NCBI GenBank assembly: GCA_026770705.1
Contig: JANJGN010000007.1
Location: 109,430,001 to 109,494,000 of the forward strand
Origin: Isurus oxyrinchus
Lineage: Eukaryota
Length of the DNA stretch: 64,000 bases
Direction of reading: 5' to 3'
Each line of letters opens with the position of its first letter. Position 1 is the stretch's first letter. This document shows, piece by piece, positions 5,111 to 61,450 of the stretch. The notes beneath the pieces are model-generated. The model was given only the letters and a program-made list of their open reading frames with translations, did no database searches and was not told the DNA's origin. The position numbers and the translations under genes were made by a program.

Positions 5111-5859
5111 CGCTATGCTGTCAAATGTGTCATGTCTCAAATTACTTTGATAGTGCACCTTATAATGTTATTTTTGAAATAAATTTACCATGCATTTACT
5201 TGACTATATCGTGACAATTTCACCTGAGATACTATTGTGTTTAGTTCTCCTTGGAAACAAAGCTTCTGAAATGTTATTTATGATTCAAATATATAGCCAC
5301 GAATGAAATGTTAATTTTGTTTCATTCTCTTGTTTTATTCGTACATGGATGTGGATGTCGCTCGCTAGGACAGCATTTATAGCCGAAACCTAATTGCCCG
5401 TGAGAAGGTGGTGATGAGCTGTCTTCTTGTCTCAATGTCTAAAATATTGGGTTAAATTCTTCATTCTGCTCTTTTGTGGCAGAGACTATAAGTCTAAACA
5501 AAACGACTCAATGCGTCTGATGAAAAAGCAACAGAGCTTTTTGACAGAAACGCTTGACCGGTTGATGTCATCACATAGCCCGCTTTCAAACAGAACCTCT
5601 GAGCTTTCCATAAGATGATACCAATTCGATCATATATCAGAGCAGTATTCAGTCAACACACTCCTCGCCCATTCAAACTTAACAGCTAAACATGCACCGA
5701 TTATATAATCTATTGGCAGGTCTCTCCTTGTCTGGCTCAAACATACCGGGTAGAAATTATATGCATTTTAGCTAAGTAACACGCTAAGAAAAAGTCATAA
5801 GTCTACCCCCTGAACAATTTAAAGATACCACGGGTTATTGCGTAACTGCATTAAGACGA

Positions 5860-26050: not shown

Positions 26051-26982
26051 AAAAGCGATATGCCTTTCGATACATTTCCATGTCATTTTGCCATACTTCA
26101 CAGTCCTGCACGTTCCCAAAGGGTCTTCCAAAATCCAGCCCAAATTTCCGTCAGTGAAACCTCACTTCATTAATATTCCAAAAGGGGCAAAGAAGCAACA
26201 AAACTTAGTACCAGTGCCTTTGATGGCAGTGGTGTGTTCAGTAATGACTGCGCTTGACAAAAGTGCCGCCAGCAGCTGTAAGCAAATAGAAGCGAAGATC
26301 GTCACTGACTTCTGACGTCTATAAAATAACGTTCGAGAAAAAGAGACTGAAAATAATGAATACAGATGCAAAAATAAAGAACACGAACAGGAAAATACAC
26401 AACTCTACACCACAGATTTAAACTGCAAACTTACAACGTTTTTACACTGATAATAGTTGTAAAGGGAAATACAATAAAAACGATATTCCATTGATAAACA
26501 TGTGACCAGAGAACCACAAAGCTCACACACATTTTAAAAATGAAAATCAACTAACTGTGAATGCATGTCTAGGTGATCTCATTGAAGGGCACTGGGTCGC
26601 AGTTTAATTGTGGTGAAGTGTGATACCCAAGGCTTGAGTTTCAACCCCCAACAGCGGCGAAATAGGAACATAAGTCGACCACAAGGCCCGTCGAGACTTC
26701 TCCGCCACTATGTACCATCATGGTTAATTTTGGCCTTCAACTCCATTTTTTCCTCCGCTACTCATATTTCCCTGAGAGAACAACACCCTCATTCCACGGA
26801 TCAATCAAGTTCCCATTCGCTGTACCGCCTCCAATGCAAGTATATCCAGTCTTAAATGTGGAGACTAAAACTGAACTCAGTATTCCAGATGCGGTCTCAG
26901 CAAAACCCTGTACAATTGTAAAACAAAAACAGAATTACCTGGAAAAACTCAGCAGGTCTAGCAGCATCGGCGGAGAAGAAAA

Positions 26983-27023
26983 GAGTTGACGTTTCGAGTC
27001 CTCATGACCCTTCGACAGAACTT
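26983..27023 (-). ncRNA. Minimal type I hammerhead ribozyme motif, CUGUCGA variant, best-preserved copy
   Basis: Minus strand: aagtt CTGTCGA a gggtc atgag gactc GAA ACGT C aactc; stem I agtt/aact, stem II gggtc/gactc, palindromic ACGT stem III, GUC site at 26990-26988. Confidence 0.72.
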
Positions 27024-27408
27024 GATTTCGAGTCCAAGAAAGAGTTGAAATATAAGCTGGTTTAAGGTGTGTGTGTGGGGGGGGCGGAGAGATAGAGAGA
27101 GAGGGGGGGTGTGGTTGTGTGGACAAACAAGCAGTGATAGAAGCAGATCATCAAATGATGTCAGCGACAATGGTACAATAGAACACATAGGTGTTAAAGT
27201 TAAAGTTGGTGATATTATCTAAACGAATGTGCTAATTAAGAATGGATGGTAGGGCACTCAAGGTACAGCTCTAGTGGGGGTGGAGGGAGCATAAAAGATT
27301 TTAAAATATTTAAAAATAATGGAAATAGATGGGAAAAGAAAAATCTATATAATTTATTGGGGGGAAAAAAGGGGGAAACAGAAATTGGGTGGGGATGGGG
27401 GAGGGAGC

Positions 27409-29443
27409 TCACGACCTAAAGTTGTTGAATTCAACATTCAGTCCGGAAGGCTGTAAGGTGCCTAGTCGGAAGATGAGGTGTTGTTCCTCCAGTTTGCGTT
27501 GGGCTTCACTGGAACAATGCAGCAAGCCAAGGACAGACATGTGGGCAAGAGAGCAGGGTGGAGTGTTAAAATGGCAAGCGACAGGGAGGTTTGGGTCATT
27601 CTTGCGGACAGACCGCAGGTGTTCTGCAAAGCGGTCGCCCAGTTTACGTTTGGTCTCTCCAATGTAGAGGAGACCACATTGGGAGCAACGAATGCAGTAA
27701 ACTAAGTTGGGGGAAATGCAAGTGAAATGCTGCTTCACTCGAAAGGAGTGTTTGGGCCCTTGGACGGTGAGGAGAGAGGAAGTGAAGGGGCAGGTGTTAC
27801 ATCTTTTGCGTGGGCATGGGGTGGTGCCATAGGAGGGGGTTGAGGAGTAGGGGGTGATGGAGGAGTGGACCAGGGTGTCCCGGAGGGAGCGATCCCTACG
27901 GAATGCCGATAAGGGGGGGTGAAGGGAAGATGTGTTTGGTGGTGGCATCATGCTGGAGTTGGCGGAAATGGCGGAGGATGATCCTTTGAATGCGGAGCCT
28001 GGTGGGGTGATAAGTGAGGACAAGGGGGACCCTATCATGTTTCTGGGAGGGAGGAGAAGGCGTGAGGGCGGATGCGCGGGAGATGGGCCAGACACGGTTG
28101 AGGGCCCTGTCAACGACCGTGGGTGGAAAACCTCGGTTAAGGAAGAAGGAGGACATGTCAGAGGAACCGTTTTTGAAGGTAGCATCATCGGAACAGATGC
28201 GACGAAGGCGAAGGAACTGGGAGAATGGGATGGAGTCCTTACAGGAAGCGGGGTGTGAGGAGCTGTAGTCTAGGTAGTTGTGGGAGTCGGTGGGTTTGTA
28301 ATGGATATTGGTGGACAGTCTATCACCAGAGATTGAGACAGAGAGGTCAAGGAAGGGAAGGGAAGTGTCAGAGATGGACCACGTGAAAATGATGGAGGGG
28401 TGGAGATTGGAAGCAAAATTAATAAATTTTTCCAAGTCCCGACGAGAGCATGAAGCAGCACCGAAGTAATCATCGATGTACCGGAGAAAAAGTTGTGGAA
28501 GGGGGCTGGAGTAGGACTGCAATAAGGAATGTTCCACATACCCCATAAAGAGACAGGCATAGCTGGGGCCCATGCGGGTACCCATAGCCACACCTTTTAT
28601 TTGGAGGAAGTGAGAGGAGTTGAAGGAGAAATTGTTCAACGTGAGAACAAGTTCAGCCAGATGGAGGAGAGTAGTGGTGGATGGGGATTGTTCGGGCCTC
28701 TGTTCGAGGAACAATCTAAGGGCCCTCAGACCATCCTGGTGGGGGATGGAGGTGTAGAGGGATTGGACGTCCATGGTGAAGAGGAAGCAGTTGGGGCCAG
28801 GGAACTGGAAATTGTTGATGTGACGTAAGGTGTCAGATTAATCACGGATGTAGGTGGGAAGGGACTGGACAAGGGGAGAGAGAAGGGAGTCAAGATAACG
28901 AGAAATGAGTTCTGTGGGGCAGGAGCAAGCTGAGACGATCGGTCTACCGGGGCAGTTCTGTTTGTGGATTTTGGGTAGGAGATAGAAGCGGGCCGTCCGA
29001 GGTTGGGCGACTATCAGGTTGGAAGCTGTGGGAGGGAGATCCCCAGAGGAGATGAGGTCAGTGACAGTCCTGGAAACAATATCTTGATGTTCAGTGGTGG
29101 GGTCATGGTCCAGGGAGAGGTAGGAGGAAGTGTCTGCGAGTTGACGCTCAGCCTCCGCGAGGTAGAGGTCAGTGCGCCAGACAACAACAGCACTACCCTT
29201 GTCAGCGGGTTTAATGACAATGTCATGGTTGGACCTGAGAGAATGGAGTGCAGTAAGTTCAGAGAGAGACAGGTTAGAATGGGTGAGAGGAGCAGAGAAA
29301 TTGAGACGACTAATGTCGCGCCGACAGTTCTCAATGAAAAGATCAAGAGAAGGTAAGAATCCAGAGGGAGGGGTCCAGGTGGAGGGAGAATATTGGAGAT
29401 GGGGAAAAGGATCCGTTGAACTGGGAGAGGACTCCTGCCCAAA
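27409..29443 (-). pseudogene. PLE polyprotein (Penelope RT plus GIY-YIG endonuclease) with two lesions
   Basis: ORFs 27896-28774 and 27409-28188 joined by a 1-bp insertion; the upstream frame is open to 29443 except for one stop. Confidence 0.93.
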
Positions 29444-30167
29444 GACTCAGATCCTATACAATTGTAGCTCGATTTATTTAGTCTTGTAGTCCAATCTCCT
29501 TGTAATGAAGGCCAATATACTATTTACCTTTCTAATTGCTTGCGGTCCGAATGCTAACTTTCCTCATTCCTTGTACAAACACATCCAAGTCTCTTTGACC
29601 ATCAGCATTTACAAGTTTCACACCTTTTGAAATGTATTCTGTTTTTGTTCTGTTCTTATACCAAAGTGATTAACTTCACTGCTCCCTACATCATACTCCA
29701 TCTGCAATCTTTTTGCCCACTCCCTTATCTTGTTTATATTGCTTTTTTAGCTGTTCCGTATCTCCTCAGATTTTACCTTGCCATCTAGCTTGCTATCGTC
29801 AACAAACTTTGATACATTACTCTCTGTCTCTAAACCTGTCATTGATATAGATTGTCAAAAGCTGAGGTCCCCGCACTGATCCTTGCAGCATTCCACGATT
29901 CACTGCCTGCCAACTTGAAAAGTTTACATCCACTCTCTTCGTTCTGTCCATTAGCCAATCCTCTATCCATGCTAAAATATTACCCTAACTGCATCAGCCC
30001 TTATGTTGCTTACTAAAGTTATGTGTGGCACCTTATTGAAGGCATTTTGGATATTCCAAGAACACTACATCTACTGGTTTCCTTTATCTGCCCTAGTAGT
30101 TACATCCTCAAAAACTTCTAATAAATTTGCCAAACCGTATTTCCTTTTAGTGAACCAATTTTGAAAA

Positions 30168-33825: not shown

Positions 33826-34619
33826 TGAAAGACGTTCCTGCTCACTTACCGCAGACAGTTAACTGGGATCCTGTTCTATTTCCATTATTTTTCCCTGACG
33901 AATCACTGCACAGTGATAGGTTCCTGAGTCCTGAGAAGTCGAGTTTTGCAGCTCAAAGAAACAGCCTCCTTTAGTATTTGGACCAAAGCCTGTTCTCTTA
34001 TCGGCTCCTATTGCAGATATTTATTCTCACCAACTTACATCGACCTCTAAATTGTCATGAGAAAGGGGGATTATGCAGTAGAAGGTGAGGTCTGACTCCC
34101 TTAACGTAGTCACCTGCGTGGGATTTTGAGACACGCTGAACGAAGTTCCTGGAGCACCTGTTGTAAAATATATTTAAGGTTTGCATTAATTCAGTGTATT
34201 CAATATGAAACCAGACACTTCAGGGCATATTTTTGCGTAGAAATGCAAAAGCGTTTGCGGACAGACAATCTGCATTCAATTCAACTGATGTGGCAGCTAT
34301 GAAAGATATGTTTTGTTTAATGGAACAGCCGGGATACAGAATATCCCGGTTCCTGTTAAAATGATCCTCGGGAGATGCATTCGACAACATTCCTAGATAA
34401 AGGCTCACTGATTTCTGACTACATTGGCTATGTGTTTTCCACTGTATGAAATGTTTGCTGAACATTTCATCTGAAAACCATCGCAATGCCGTTTGTCATC
34501 TTGTGCCCGTTGGTCCACAAAATAGGTTTCGTTTGTGACCGTTCTGCTCTTCGGCGGCTATTGGGATAACCTATAACCCGAGCAACAATTAATAAGAGTT
34601 TTTAAAAAGGCTGAATTTC

Positions 34620-56700: not shown

Positions 56701-57200
56701 GTGTTTCATCCATAACCTAGAAAACATCGTATTTCCTCCTTAGCAATCTCGTCAATACGTTGTTTAAACTATTAATTTTAATTAGTGCCTCTCAACCTGC
56801 TCGGTACTTATATTCTCATTAACGCACTGCGTTACTTGCCCGTTTTGATTTTTTTTAATGTCCCAACTCCTAATTTGAAAAGATATCGAAGCTCGGAGAC
56901 ACCAACCTATCACATAACTGTTGCCCTGTGACATCACACTTGTATTGTCTTTACAACGCTTCTTTTCCCACCCCCCAACCCCCTTTGTTTCGTTGCTGCC
57001 CCCACTCCTCTGTCCACCCGTTGCTCTACCTGTCCTCTTTCCCTGGGCGCTGCTGCCGCCACGCTTTTATCCTCCGGTTGGTCTCGCGATGCTCTCCCTC
57101 TGGGTTCTGCTGCTTTACGATTATTATCGCTGGGGCGATATGCTGTCAGATTCATTATGTCTCAAATTTCTCATATAGTGTGACAATTTCACCTGAGATA

Positions 57201-57675
57201 TTTGCACTTCACTCAATTTAGTATACTGCTTTCGCTGTTCCCAATGCGGTTTCCTCTACATTGGAGAGAACAAACGCAGACTGGGTGATCGCTTTGCGGA
57301 ACACCTTCGGTCTGTCCGTAAGCATGACCCAGACCTCCTTATCGCTTGCCATTTAAACACTCCACCCTGCGCTCATGCCCACATGTCCGTCTTTGGCCTA
57401 CTGCATTGTTCCAGTGAAGCTCAACGCAAACTGGAGGAACAGCACCTCATCTTCCGACTAAGCACTTTACAACCTTCCAGACTGAATATTGAGTTCAACA
57501 ATTTTTAGATCATGAACTCACTCCTCCAATCCCCACCCTTTTTCCGGTCTCCCTTTTTTTCAATAATTTATATAGATTTTTCTTTTCCCACCTATTTCCA
57601 TAATTTTTAAATGTATTTCCATCAATTGTTTTATCTTTGCCTTTTAGCCCTCCCCCACTAGAGCTATCTGTATTT
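57201..57675 (+). mobile_element. PLE GIY-YIG fragment plus first part of tail
   Basis: Open frame QCGFLYIGENKRRLGDRFAEHLRSVRKHDPD..EQHLIFRL..NIEFNNF. Confidence 0.92.
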
Positions 57676-57689
57676 TTATTATCACATTC

Positions 57690-58420
57690 CTGGTCTTGTA
57701 GTCGTAGTATGTATACGGCTCGTCCAATTAGGTTTCTGGTAATGGTAACCCTCAGGATTTTGATGGTGGGATTTCAGCGATGGTAATGCCATTGAATATC
57801 GAGCAAATTTGGTTAGATGGTGTCTTGTTGGAGACTGTCATTGCCTGAGACTTGTGTGGCACGAATGTTACTTGACAATTATCCGCCCAAGCCTGAACGG
57901 TGTCCAAGTGTCACTGCATATAGGTACGAACTACTTCAGTATCTGTGGAACCGTGAATGTGAGTGAATACTGTGAAATCATCAGCAAACATCCCGATTTC
58001 TAACTATATGACGGAGGGAAGGGCATTGATGAAGCAGCTGAAGAAAACCCAGGATACTGCCATGAGGACCTCCTACAGCGATGTGCTGGAGCTAAGATGA
58101 CGAGATCCAACAATGCCAACCATATTCCTTTGTGCCAGGCCTTACTCGAATCAATGATACATTTCCCCACATGATTCCTATTGACTTCAATTTTGCGAAG
58201 GTTGCTTGATGCCACACTCAGTCAAATGCTTGCCTTGATGCCTTGTGTTCAGATTGTTTTTGTCAATGCTTAGGACAAGGCTTTATTGAGGTTAGGAGGC
58301 TAGTGGCCCTGGTGGAACCAAAACGGAATTCCTATGAGCCGATTAATGTGGTGTAAATGCTGCTTGATAGCACCGTCATTGACACTTTCCATTGCATTGC
58401 TGATGGTCAAGAGTGGACAC
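57690..58420 (-). mobile_element. Internal RT fragment of the tRNA-headed LINE family
   Basis: Matches 14410-14900 and 49670-50250. Confidence 0.8.
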
Positions 58421-58449
58421 ATAGTTTTGATATCATAACTATTATTGAA

Positions 58450-60461
58450 ACATGGATAAAGGAAATGCAAGCATGGGGCTTTCAGGCAGGATGGAAAGGG
58501 AGATAAAATAGGGCGGCGTGGCAATTTTGGTGAAAGCTGTGAAGAAGCATGTTATGCTTTCAGGAAAATTTAATGAAACCGGGAAGGTTAAATAGAGGAA
58601 CAAAATGATGCAATAACATTGCTGGGAGTACAATGTAGATTCGTCAGACAGTCAGGGAGAGATAGTTGGGTAAATATGTAGGCAGGTTATTGGGCACAGC
58701 AGAAAAAAATAGGGCAACAATAGAATGGAATTTCAACTACACTGTCTTAAATGGAATAAAAGCATTATAAAAGGTGTAAAGGGGCGGAATTCTTAAAATG
58801 CATTCAGGGGGGCTTTTTAAAGGCAGTACGATGCTTACCCTAAATGAAAAATTGCTGTTCTGGACTTAATTTTAGGAAATAAAACTGGGCAGGTAGAAGC
58901 CGTATCAGTGGGGGAGTAGTTTCGAAGTGGTAACCATAATTAAATTAGACTGAGCATAGTTATGAAAAAGGTCCAAGATAGGTCAAGAGTGAAAACCTAA
59001 CATCTGAGGAAGGCCCAAATATTAAGCAGAAATAATATTTGGCAAAAGTGGACTGGAAACACTCTTTGAAGGTAAATACGTGTGAGAGCATCAGGAACCA
59101 TTCATAAAGGCATTGCAGACGATTCAAATCAACTATATTTCCACAAAAGGAAAAGGGTAGGACTTCAAGTTGTGGAAATTCCCGCATCACGATGCCTTCT
59201 GGAGGTCAAAGCACATACATGTAGGATAAGGGAAAATAGGTTCTGTCACACATCGAGAGGTCTATACTGCAGAAAGCTTGAAGGAGTGTGGAAAATGCTC
59301 GAGTGAAATTTAAAAGGAAATTAGGATGGCAATGACAGGACATGAGAAATATTGACAAGTGATATTAAGGAAAGCCGCAAGATAATTTATGAATGAAAAA
59401 AGAACAAAAACGAATAGCTACAGAAGGAGACAGGTTGATAAGAGGCCAAAAAGACGAATTTCCTGTGTGGAGGTGGAAGACGTGAGCATGATTCTCAATG
59501 AATGCTTTGCGTGTGTCATTATAAAGAGACGCTTTATATGGACATTGCAGTTAAGAAAGAGGATTGTGAACTATTGGACGATATAAGCATTGTGAGAGAG
59601 CATATAGCTGCTCAGTGAAGCAAGGCAGGAAATAATGCGAGCTCTGGCTATCATTTTCCAATCCTCTCTGGCGACAGGCCTGGTGCCAGTAGACTAGCGG
59701 ACTACTAAAATTATGTCGTTGTTTAAAAAAGGAGAAATGATACACCCAGTAATTACAGACCAGACAGAATAACATTGGCTGTGAGCTACGTACTGGGAAG
59801 AAAAAAGCTGAGGACTAGTATAAGTGTTCAGTAAAAAAATGCACTATTAATCAATGGCAACCCCGTTGACATACTCAGGGAAGTTTGTGCCTGGCTAATC
59901 TCATTGATTTATTTGGGGAGGTAGCAAGTTGAGCCAATGTGTGTGGCACATTTAATCTAGTCTACGTGGACTTTAGCATGACGTTTGGCAAGTTTTAACA
60001 TGGCAGACTGGTCAGAAAAATAAGAGCCCCTGAAGATCCAAAGGGAAGTGGAAAGTTGGACCCAAAACTGGTTCAGTAGCAGGAAGCAAAGGGTAATTGT
60101 CAACCAATGTCTTTTGCAACTCGAAGGCTGTTTCCAGGCCTATTCCACGGGGCTCAGTTCTAGGTTCCTTGCTATTCCTGGTATATATCAATAATTGAAA
60201 GCTAAATTTATTGCACATGGTTAAGGAGTTTGCAGATGATACAAACTTCCTCTTGTTGATAATGAGGGAGGAGGCTGTAGAGGTCTGGATGGATTGTCAG
60301 GTGCGAAGGAAGGTGGCAGATCGAATTCAGCCCGGAAAAATGTGAGGTTATGCATTTTGGGAGGGCAAACAAGGCATAGGAATACAAAATAAATGGTAGA
60401 AGTGTTGAAGAACGTAGGGACATCCGAGTGCACGTCCACAGATCCGAAAAAGGTAGCAGGA
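58450..60461 (+). mobile_element. Degraded CR1 ORF2, truncated at its 3' side by the PLE tail
   Basis: APE GGVAILVK; RT gtctacgtggactttagc and tttgcagatgatacaaa (FADDT); ends at gtagcaggaca. Confidence 0.85.
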
Positions 60462-60464
60462 CAT

Positions 60465-60990
60465 TCTCTCACGAACTCTTTCCTCCATCCCCATCCCATT
60501 TCCGATCCCCCTTTTTCCAATAATTTATAAAGATTTTTCTTTTCCCACCTATTTCCATTATTTTTAAATGTATTTCCACCCATTGTTTTATCTCTACCTT
60601 CTAGCCTATTTCGATCCCTTCCCCCCACCCACCCCCACTAGGGCTATCTGTACCTTGTTCGTCCTGCTTTCTACCCTTAATGTCACCTATTATCACATTC
60701 CTTAGATAATATCACCACCTTCAACACCTCTTTGTCCTTTTGTTTATGATATCTTTTGGTTATTTCCACCTATCACTGGCCCTCTAGCAGCTCTACCTGT
60801 CCCAACCCCCTTAAACCAGCTTATATTTCACCTCTTTTCTATTTTTCCTTAGTTGTGTTGAATATCATATGGACTCGAAACTTTAACTGTCTTCCTCTCC
60901 GCAGATGCTGTCCGACCTGCTGAGTTTTTCCAGGTATTTTTGTTTTTGTTTTTATTTTGGATTTCCAGCATCCGCAGTTTTTTGCTTTTA
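60465..60990 (+). mobile_element. Complete PLE tail with degenerate hammerhead (60851-60888)
   Basis: Same subfamily as the 22000-22530 tail; agtt gTGTTGA..ggactc GAAAC ttt aact. Confidence 0.9.
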
Positions 60991-61450
60991 TGAACTGAGA
61001 TAATGTTGGTTTCAGTTCTAACTATAAACAAAGCTGCAAAATTGCATGAAATTATTAAAATAAGTGATCAGTAAATCGGTAAACCTGAGACGTTAACTTT
61101 GTTTCTTTCACCACAGATAGCCAGCGACTAGCTTATTATTTCCAGTTTCCTCGGTTTTATTTTTAAACATTCAACATCGAATATATCATGCTTTCATTAT
61201 GCAAGTTTCAGCCTCTATCATGTAGATTTACATTTTTCTGGCAGAGGATTCACTTTTTAACTAAACGGGTCGATGCATCTGATGAAATAGTGGCATAGGT
61301 TTTTGACAGCAAGGTCTGACGTTTTTGAAATCACGTATCCAGCTTTCAAACATCGCAGATTTTCTAGCTTTCTCATATGAGGTATGACCTCGAATGAATC
61401 CTTTATCCCTCTGAGCGTTCTATTAAATGAAAACAATACGTCTATCAGAT

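Follow-up and report, generated by a model that had tools for sequence, protein, structure and literature searches.

A locus of Isurus oxyrinchus bears on how Penelope-like elements (PLEs) move host DNA, and on why the cargo found between their ends keeps introns. Within a stretch of 64,000 nucleotides (contig JANJGN010000007.1, positions 109,430,001 to 109,494,000, forward strand; hereafter the window), a truncated PLE and a complete PLE tail enclose pieces of long interspersed nuclear elements (LINEs) inside a single target-site duplication (TSD). A first-pass annotation had taken this composite for a transduction, in which a read-through RNA ending at a hammerhead-bearing tail was retrotransposed in trans. 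A search of the genome identified a donor locus 75 kb away. Comparison of the two loci suggests that the tract at 57689-60990 was probably copied from the donor into a Penelope insertion by DNA-templated, one-sided strand invasion through the homology of the shared tail.

The composite and its target site

The insert occupies window positions 57201-60990 and is enclosed by two short target-site copies. Its parts, and the evidence on which each is placed, are as follows (RT, reverse transcriptase; pLTR, pseudo-long terminal repeat; S1 and S2, subfamilies of the PLE).

About 5213..5248, plus strand: paralogous empty site in the older repeat unit of the window (unit 1), with one copy of the motif
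57189..57200, plus strand: left target-site copy, TCACCTGAGATA, which is the ancestral state and occurs as a single copy in three paralogous empty sites
57201..57508, plus strand: PLE A, 5′-truncated C-terminal GIY-YIG endonuclease region; open frame of 103 amino acids up to a stop
57509..57691, plus strand: partial tail of PLE A, subfamily S2; a 31-nt deletion and an A to G change are common to other copies
57689..57691, plus strand: left junction of the copied tract, 3-bp microhomology CCT between the PLE A tail and the donor LINE, from comparison of the junctions
57689..58420, minus strand: old LINE RT fragment copied from the donor, from comparison with the donor and RT-like motifs in translation
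58421..60465, plus strand: decayed CR1-like LINE, 5′ part only, from comparison with the donor and with paralogue L003
60466..60990, plus strand: full PLE tail (solo pLTR, subfamily S1), sharing alleles with the donor at least to 60864 and ending at the outer 3′ end of the family
60851..60888, plus strand: hammerhead-like motif with a broken stem II, the break being common to the donor; predicted cut after 60884
60991..61002, plus strand: right target-site copy, TGAACTGAGATA

The two target-site copies match perfectly over 8 bp, or over 12 bp with 2 mismatches. The TSD and the empty site in unit 1, both noticed in the first-pass annotation, were confirmed, and two closer paralogues (L178 and L180) proved to have the same single motif copy between continuous flanks, those of L178 being 78-79% identical. 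The whole composite lies inside one TSD with paralogous empty sites, as does the pLTR-framed cargo of Arkhipova (2013). TSD-like matches scoring at least 8 (8-15 bp) were found at 25 of 38 measured insertions of the family as against 2 of 140 mismatched controls; the composite, with a score of 8, falls in the range of the family.

A misjoin in the assembly had been named as a possible source of the structure. The left junction is bridged by a short-read contig of organism A, and the junction between tail and cargo is spanned (57609-57795) by a contig from run X5 of organism B, a second species. The runs of organism B hold two versions of the cargo, about 2-3% and about 6% from the window. The right junction is crossed by just 24-26 letters in the contigs listed (bridging threshold, 31 letters). 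The composite structure is genuine and predates the split of the two species.

The layout corresponds to that first described, except that the cargo begins at 57689 and not at 57675, since 57675-57691 still belongs to the PLE tail. The composite retains just the endonuclease end of PLE A, which shares 83% DNA identity with a window copy at 27267-27721. The frame of the latter matches Pfam GIY-YIG at E 2.3e-4, just below the cut-off, and a Pfam scan of the 103-amino-acid frame of PLE A alone gave no match. The arrangement typical of endonuclease-positive PLEs, an RT followed by a C-terminal GIY-YIG endonuclease, is present in this neighbouring copy (27412-28837), where Pfam RVT_1 is matched at cut-off. 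The tail of PLE A carries a private 24-nt deletion about 40 nt from the left junction and ends about 290 nt short of the normal 3′ end. It overlaps the second tail across 57510-57691 and 60469-60703, with 87% identity between 57510-57649 and 60469-60606. The composite has no poly(A) and the cargo no recognised introns. The LINE at 58421-60465 is labelled CR1-like by its motifs; a Pfam scan of one short opposite-strand frame over it found nothing. The hammerhead-like assignment is by core motif, and an Rfam scan of window 57000-61200 gave no match up to E 1.

PLE sequence makes up 7-9% of the region, and S2 accounts for 11 of 44 copies of the family. Insertions of the family end at either of two 3′ sites, near reference positions 1988 and 2030, often have inverted 5′ pieces and have short TSDs (in 25/38); two such 3′ ends separated by 30-40 nt, inverted 5′ pieces and short TSDs are all features of PLEs. 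A long copy of another subfamily lies at window 26920-29520 (minus strand); its RT frame comprises 313 and its GIY-YIG frame 286 amino acids. Copies 95-96% similar to it form a head-to-head palindrome at C7:109598500-109601400. Two further loci, L051 and L052 (contigs C612 and C18), have an identical insertion with identical flanks and are possibly an unplaced haplotype duplicate.

Origin of the cargo

The genome was searched with 57600-60520 as query, and 40 of 18001 candidates were scored. Among them was a single 93% copy, on the minus strand at G000:C7:109565541-109568371 and thus 75 kb away from the copy in the window; the next matches were two older paralogues (78% and 82%), followed by dispersed LINE copies at 72-78%. 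The full tract 57689-60990 corresponds, in inverted orientation, to G000:C7:109568371-109565074 (92.5% over 3320 bp). The flanks of this donor are native, being common to the older paralogues. At the donor the LINE RT fragment extends further upstream and CR1 resumes beyond the tail, and in paralogue L003 CR1 runs uninterrupted without a tail. It follows that copying went from the donor to the window. The earlier argument that later nesting does not account for the cargo is borne out. A donor in which CR1 continues after the tail had been predicted, and in this respect the prediction was correct; the junction between PLE and LINE, also expected there, is missing. It is present in no other of the 40 scored hits. 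The donor has no endonuclease upstream and was never enclosed by two PLE ends.

The two ends of the composite belong to different subfamilies: the left PLE part is S2, whereas the second tail and the donor tail are S1. At the donor, a solo S1 tail inserted into the old CR1 and then gained about 1% of private changes. Up to 60864, the second tail has in common with it a 1-nt deletion and 5 substitutions that depart from the majority; none of the other 55 aligned copies holds more than 3 of these alleles. The last 126 nt (60865-60990) contain neither an S1/S2 marker nor a donor-shared allele, so they may come from either the donor or PLE A; finding no such allele has a P of about 0.2 if this segment was copied from the donor. 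The tract terminates at the canonical, outer Penelope 3′ end, as the first-pass annotation had it.

From target to donor, the sequence is colinear with that of the paralogous block, showing that the tract was copied without crossover. A 75-kb inversion by crossover is excluded on the same grounds, and an apparent small inversion turned out to be the inverted arm of a PLE.

The cargo had been thought more decayed than the PLE ends, and the divergence values agree with this. It differs by 14.5-18% from its paralogues, as opposed to 4-6% between the PLE parts and the family majority; by this measure the cargo is older than the PLE parts. Window and donor versions of the cargo differ at 175 of 2759 sites, with 82 changes assigned to the window lineage and 65 to the donor lineage. 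The substitution spectra of the two lineages, compared for a trace of RNA editing, are alike, with no clear difference.

The donor solo pLTR (L002; G000:C7:109565600-109564131) starts at the boundary between open reading frame and untranslated region (UTR) and has no TSD. It ends 0.95 kb upstream of an immunoglobulin (Ig) V-set gene, in sense orientation, where a promoter effect on that gene is possible.

Copying mechanism

The course of events that we propose starts from an observed state: PLE A, an S2 element, lies between the TSD copies at the target. The right-hand 3′ end of its tail would have invaded the donor tail, the nearest matching tail, with synthesis proceeding leftward for about 3.2 kb through tail, CR1 and LINE. 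Release would have been followed by end-joining to the rest of PLE A, at a joint where the 3 bp of microhomology are observed, and 160-290 nt of PLE A's own tail would have been lost or converted. In this scheme the TSD would be PLE A's own, and silent on any RNA carrying the cargo.

The DNA route is favoured over an RNA route because of the donor's position. No tail but that of the donor is at least 85% identical in the surrounding 892 kb (the next full-length tail reaches 79%), and use of the nearest matching tail is expected from a DNA homology search, not from a diffusing RNA. By simple arithmetic, the chance of a random landing within +/-75 kb in a genome of 4.98 Gb is about 3e-5. Together, the S2 part and the final 126 nt, which may also be S2-derived, form a colinear series without overlap, as would one element interrupted by an insertion. 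A transposable element (TE) interrupted by a copy with a single parental sequence elsewhere is a hallmark of repair-mediated duplication (RD), the right remnant of PLE A being putative here; so are microhomology of 2-9 nt, deletion or filler at the junction and the lack of poly(A), with which the 3-bp CCT, the 24-nt deletion and the missing poly(A) agree. Another tract, of about the same age and likewise copied without crossover, begins 0.95 kb away from the donor tail: a V-set gene block of 593 bp, comprising 5′ UTR, leader, intron and V exon, is found at a gene 160 kb away. The two versions (L108:2026-2615 and G000:C7:109564131-109563539) are 93% identical (90-96%), intron included, between flanks of 54-66% identity, and gene conversion between the two inverted genes, from the gene beside the donor, is the likely origin. 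The intron is also 92-94% identical to that of a third paralogue, so constraint or repeated conversion contributes.

The capture might have followed a break that PLE A suffered some time after its insertion, an order of events to which we give slightly less than an even chance; that it took place while the nascent complementary DNA (cDNA) of PLE A was still being made seems rather unlikely. At non-CpG sites, PLE A differs from its subfamily majority at 23 of 420 positions (5.5%), versus the 3.2-3.5% that the composite has accumulated since copying (Fisher p 0.015-0.03). Under a stricter count (alleles present in at most 2 of 44 copies) the figure drops to 15/420 and p rises to about 0.4-0.5, which makes the test fragile. 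As the age of PLE A depends on the counting rule, later repair and capture during integration are not separable.

Several observations weigh against a DNA-templated origin. The copy stops exactly at the end of the tail where reverse transcription initiates, which fits the scheme above only because PLE A ends there too. The cargo sits upstream of the tail in sense orientation, as RNA transduction predicts. The loss or conversion of 160-290 nt of the PLE A tail is an added requirement (donor alleles are found at 60787 and 60863-4). The clean class of RD in the available part of the original survey lies less than 5 kb away and measures at most 619 bp; among the distant (interchromosomal) cases inspected there, 17 of 29 resembled retrotransposition (PMC2671141). 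Moreover, this is a single event, with no distance distribution. Finally, a family mean of 3-5% from the majority suggests that copying falls in the active period of the family, as an involvement of RT requires.

These last points bring up RNA-templated transduction, in which a read-through transcript of the donor would be bound by PLE protein at the tail and reverse-transcribed from an internal start through the cargo. To form the left end, the RT would switch at CCT to an S2 mRNA, or the cDNA would enter an existing PLE A whose leftover tail collapsed later. The canonical 3′ end, the family-sized TSD, the sense orientation of the cargo and the timing all speak for this route. Internal initiation on uncleaved RNA, without the ribozyme, has been shown in vitro (PMC11167929), and host DNA framed by pLTRs, with an 8-bp TSD and retained introns, figures in the accessible text of PMC3846280. 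In one sampled copy, L033 (oriented 1998-2125), a second PLE, a 100-bp inverted end of another subfamily, is inserted with a 12-bp TSD into an S2 tail, no more than about 5 nt from the point at which the first tail of the composite is cut. An insertion hot spot at the left junction was considered and dropped: besides L033, the three examined of 39 hits, picked by similarity, were insertions outside PLE tails, which leaves L033 as the one case.

The RNA route meets its main difficulty in the position of the donor, the sole matching tail in 892 kb; for a landing 75 kb off, the RNA would have to be used while still chromatin-bound. It also requires an upstream promoter, the cargo lying upstream of, and not within, the nearest V-set gene, and either a switch to a second RNA or a collapse afterwards. 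No RNA data were among the listed records that contain the stretch. Of the 58 family loci fetched, the donor among them, none has transduced cargo within its 1.5-kb flanks. The hammerhead-terminated transcript proposed originally fares worse. The 5-bp stem II of the hammerhead-like motif, intact in 17 of 45 other family rows, was broken before copying, as the donor and the composite share the break, and the insert extends 106 nt beyond the predicted cut. Retrotransposition in trans is further weakened by a left PLE of another subfamily than the donor tail. Altogether, we consider an RNA template unlikely, if still a serious contender when made and used locally.

It is also conceivable, and in our opinion quite improbable, that Penelope integration itself drives long DNA-templated capture. 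A short tail cDNA would invade the nearest homologous pLTR in cis, copy kilobases and return to the RNA of the element; the segment in which the switch would occur (60865-60990) contains the predicted hammerhead cut at 60884. If true, pLTR-framed, intron-retaining "retrocopies" would be DNA copies, and their introns would be explained with no need of an RNA template that is unspliced or antisense.

Two independent PLE insertions around DNA already in place, later nesting of a LINE into a PLE, or a misjoin are hardly credible: the share of PLEs in the region makes chance neighbours common, but these readings are refuted by three paralogues with a clean empty site, by a 93% donor with a common junction of CR1 and tail and shared private alleles, by a cargo older than the PLE, and by a second species holding the inner junction and two cargo versions.

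The annotation had further suggested that PLE tails act as portable ends that shuffle genomic DNA. Among 87 PLE 3′ ends in 892 kb, the composite is the one capture recognised and no second example was found, so the suggestion is not supported. Other duplication breakpoints at PLE ends in the same interval lie in colinear tandem duplications, as judged from their offsets. Distant left TSDs, indicative of pure 5′ transduction, were sought at 13 loci without a clear TSD; the 2 weak 12-13-mer matches obtained were rejected as due to chance or to an adjacent TSD.

Known systems and genomic setting

Host DNA between PLE ends has already been described, and in that sense the idea of the first-pass annotation is not new. 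In Adineta vaga, a nonribosomal peptide synthetase (NRPS) gene that has kept its introns lies between Pen3a pLTRs inside an 8-bp TSD (Arkhipova et al. 2013, PMC3846280); in the available text this is read as mobilisation in trans, and the case is cited in PMC6431247 and PMC8557442. As here, kilobases of non-PLE DNA lie between direct PLE ends within one short TSD, with an empty site. Unlike the Adineta case, the composite has no pLTR pair, its left end being a truncated tail and endonuclease from another subfamily, and its donor is identified and local, the accessible text of PMC3846280 giving no basis for a comparison of distances.

RD is the capture of nearby DNA inside TEs by synthesis-dependent strand annealing (SDSA), described in vertebrates (Pace et al. 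2009, PMC2671141), with microhomology and a deletion inside a TE as its signature in the part of the report available. As in the composite, the TE in these cases is split by sequence copied from a single other site of its own chromosome, with the donor left intact; a junction shows short microhomology and deletion, and poly(A) is lacking. The composite exceeds the confident class of that report in both length (3.3 kb versus at most 619 bp) and distance (75 kb versus less than 5 kb); it would fall in the unresolved "distant" class, which reaches 3,424 bp. It also differs in that one end was apparently set by long TE-end homology and not by microhomology.

For L1, the accessible text of a preprint proposes that the growing cDNA leaves its RNA and copies nearby homologous DNA in an SDSA-like manner (bioRxiv 10.1101/2024.08.27.596794). 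The resulting chimeric insertions duplicate genomic DNA, as here, but their templates are typically shorter than 250 bp and lie beside the insertion, as opposed to 3.3 kb from 75 kb away at a PLE. Downstream of its hammerhead, the anole Poseidon element PAc has two start sites for RT, separated by about 40 nt, and the RNA it requires includes the first 172 nt of the open reading frame (Frangieh et al. 2024, PMC11167929). These start sites match the two 3′ ends of the present family, of which the composite uses the outer one; no cargo capture was shown for PAc. In a partial coverage of the literature, no account of PLE ends capturing sequence from a DNA template came up.

About 15 Ig V-set exons, some in one orientation and some in the other, are clustered in the surrounding region (G000:C7:109206000-109647000; Pfam V-set). 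Each ends in a G-x-G-S/T-x-L J-like motif and several have stops; one, partial, lies at window 33904-34167 (minus strand). They may be NKp30-like; a PDB search with one exon returned antibody chains only. The region is built of nested tandem segmental duplications with offsets of about 325 kb (~80% identity), about 48 kb (~92%) and about 37 kb (~86%), at G000:C7:109150000-109270000 versus 109480000-109590000; at 109730000-109830000; and at 109621000-109680000.

The event moved dead LINE fragments only, in a single case, and its direct biological effect is probably nil. What the locus offers is an identified donor together with empty sites, a copy that can be dated and two subfamilies that can be told apart. 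The composite works like an RD primed by TE-end homology, most likely the outcome of DNA repair that took the nearest matching end as template. As a local duplication it is of a known kind, documented here in unusual detail. It shows that a TSD around cargo enclosed by PLE ends does not by itself imply transport as RNA, and it provides a test that can be applied genome-wide: how far away the donor lies, and whether any other matching tail is closer.

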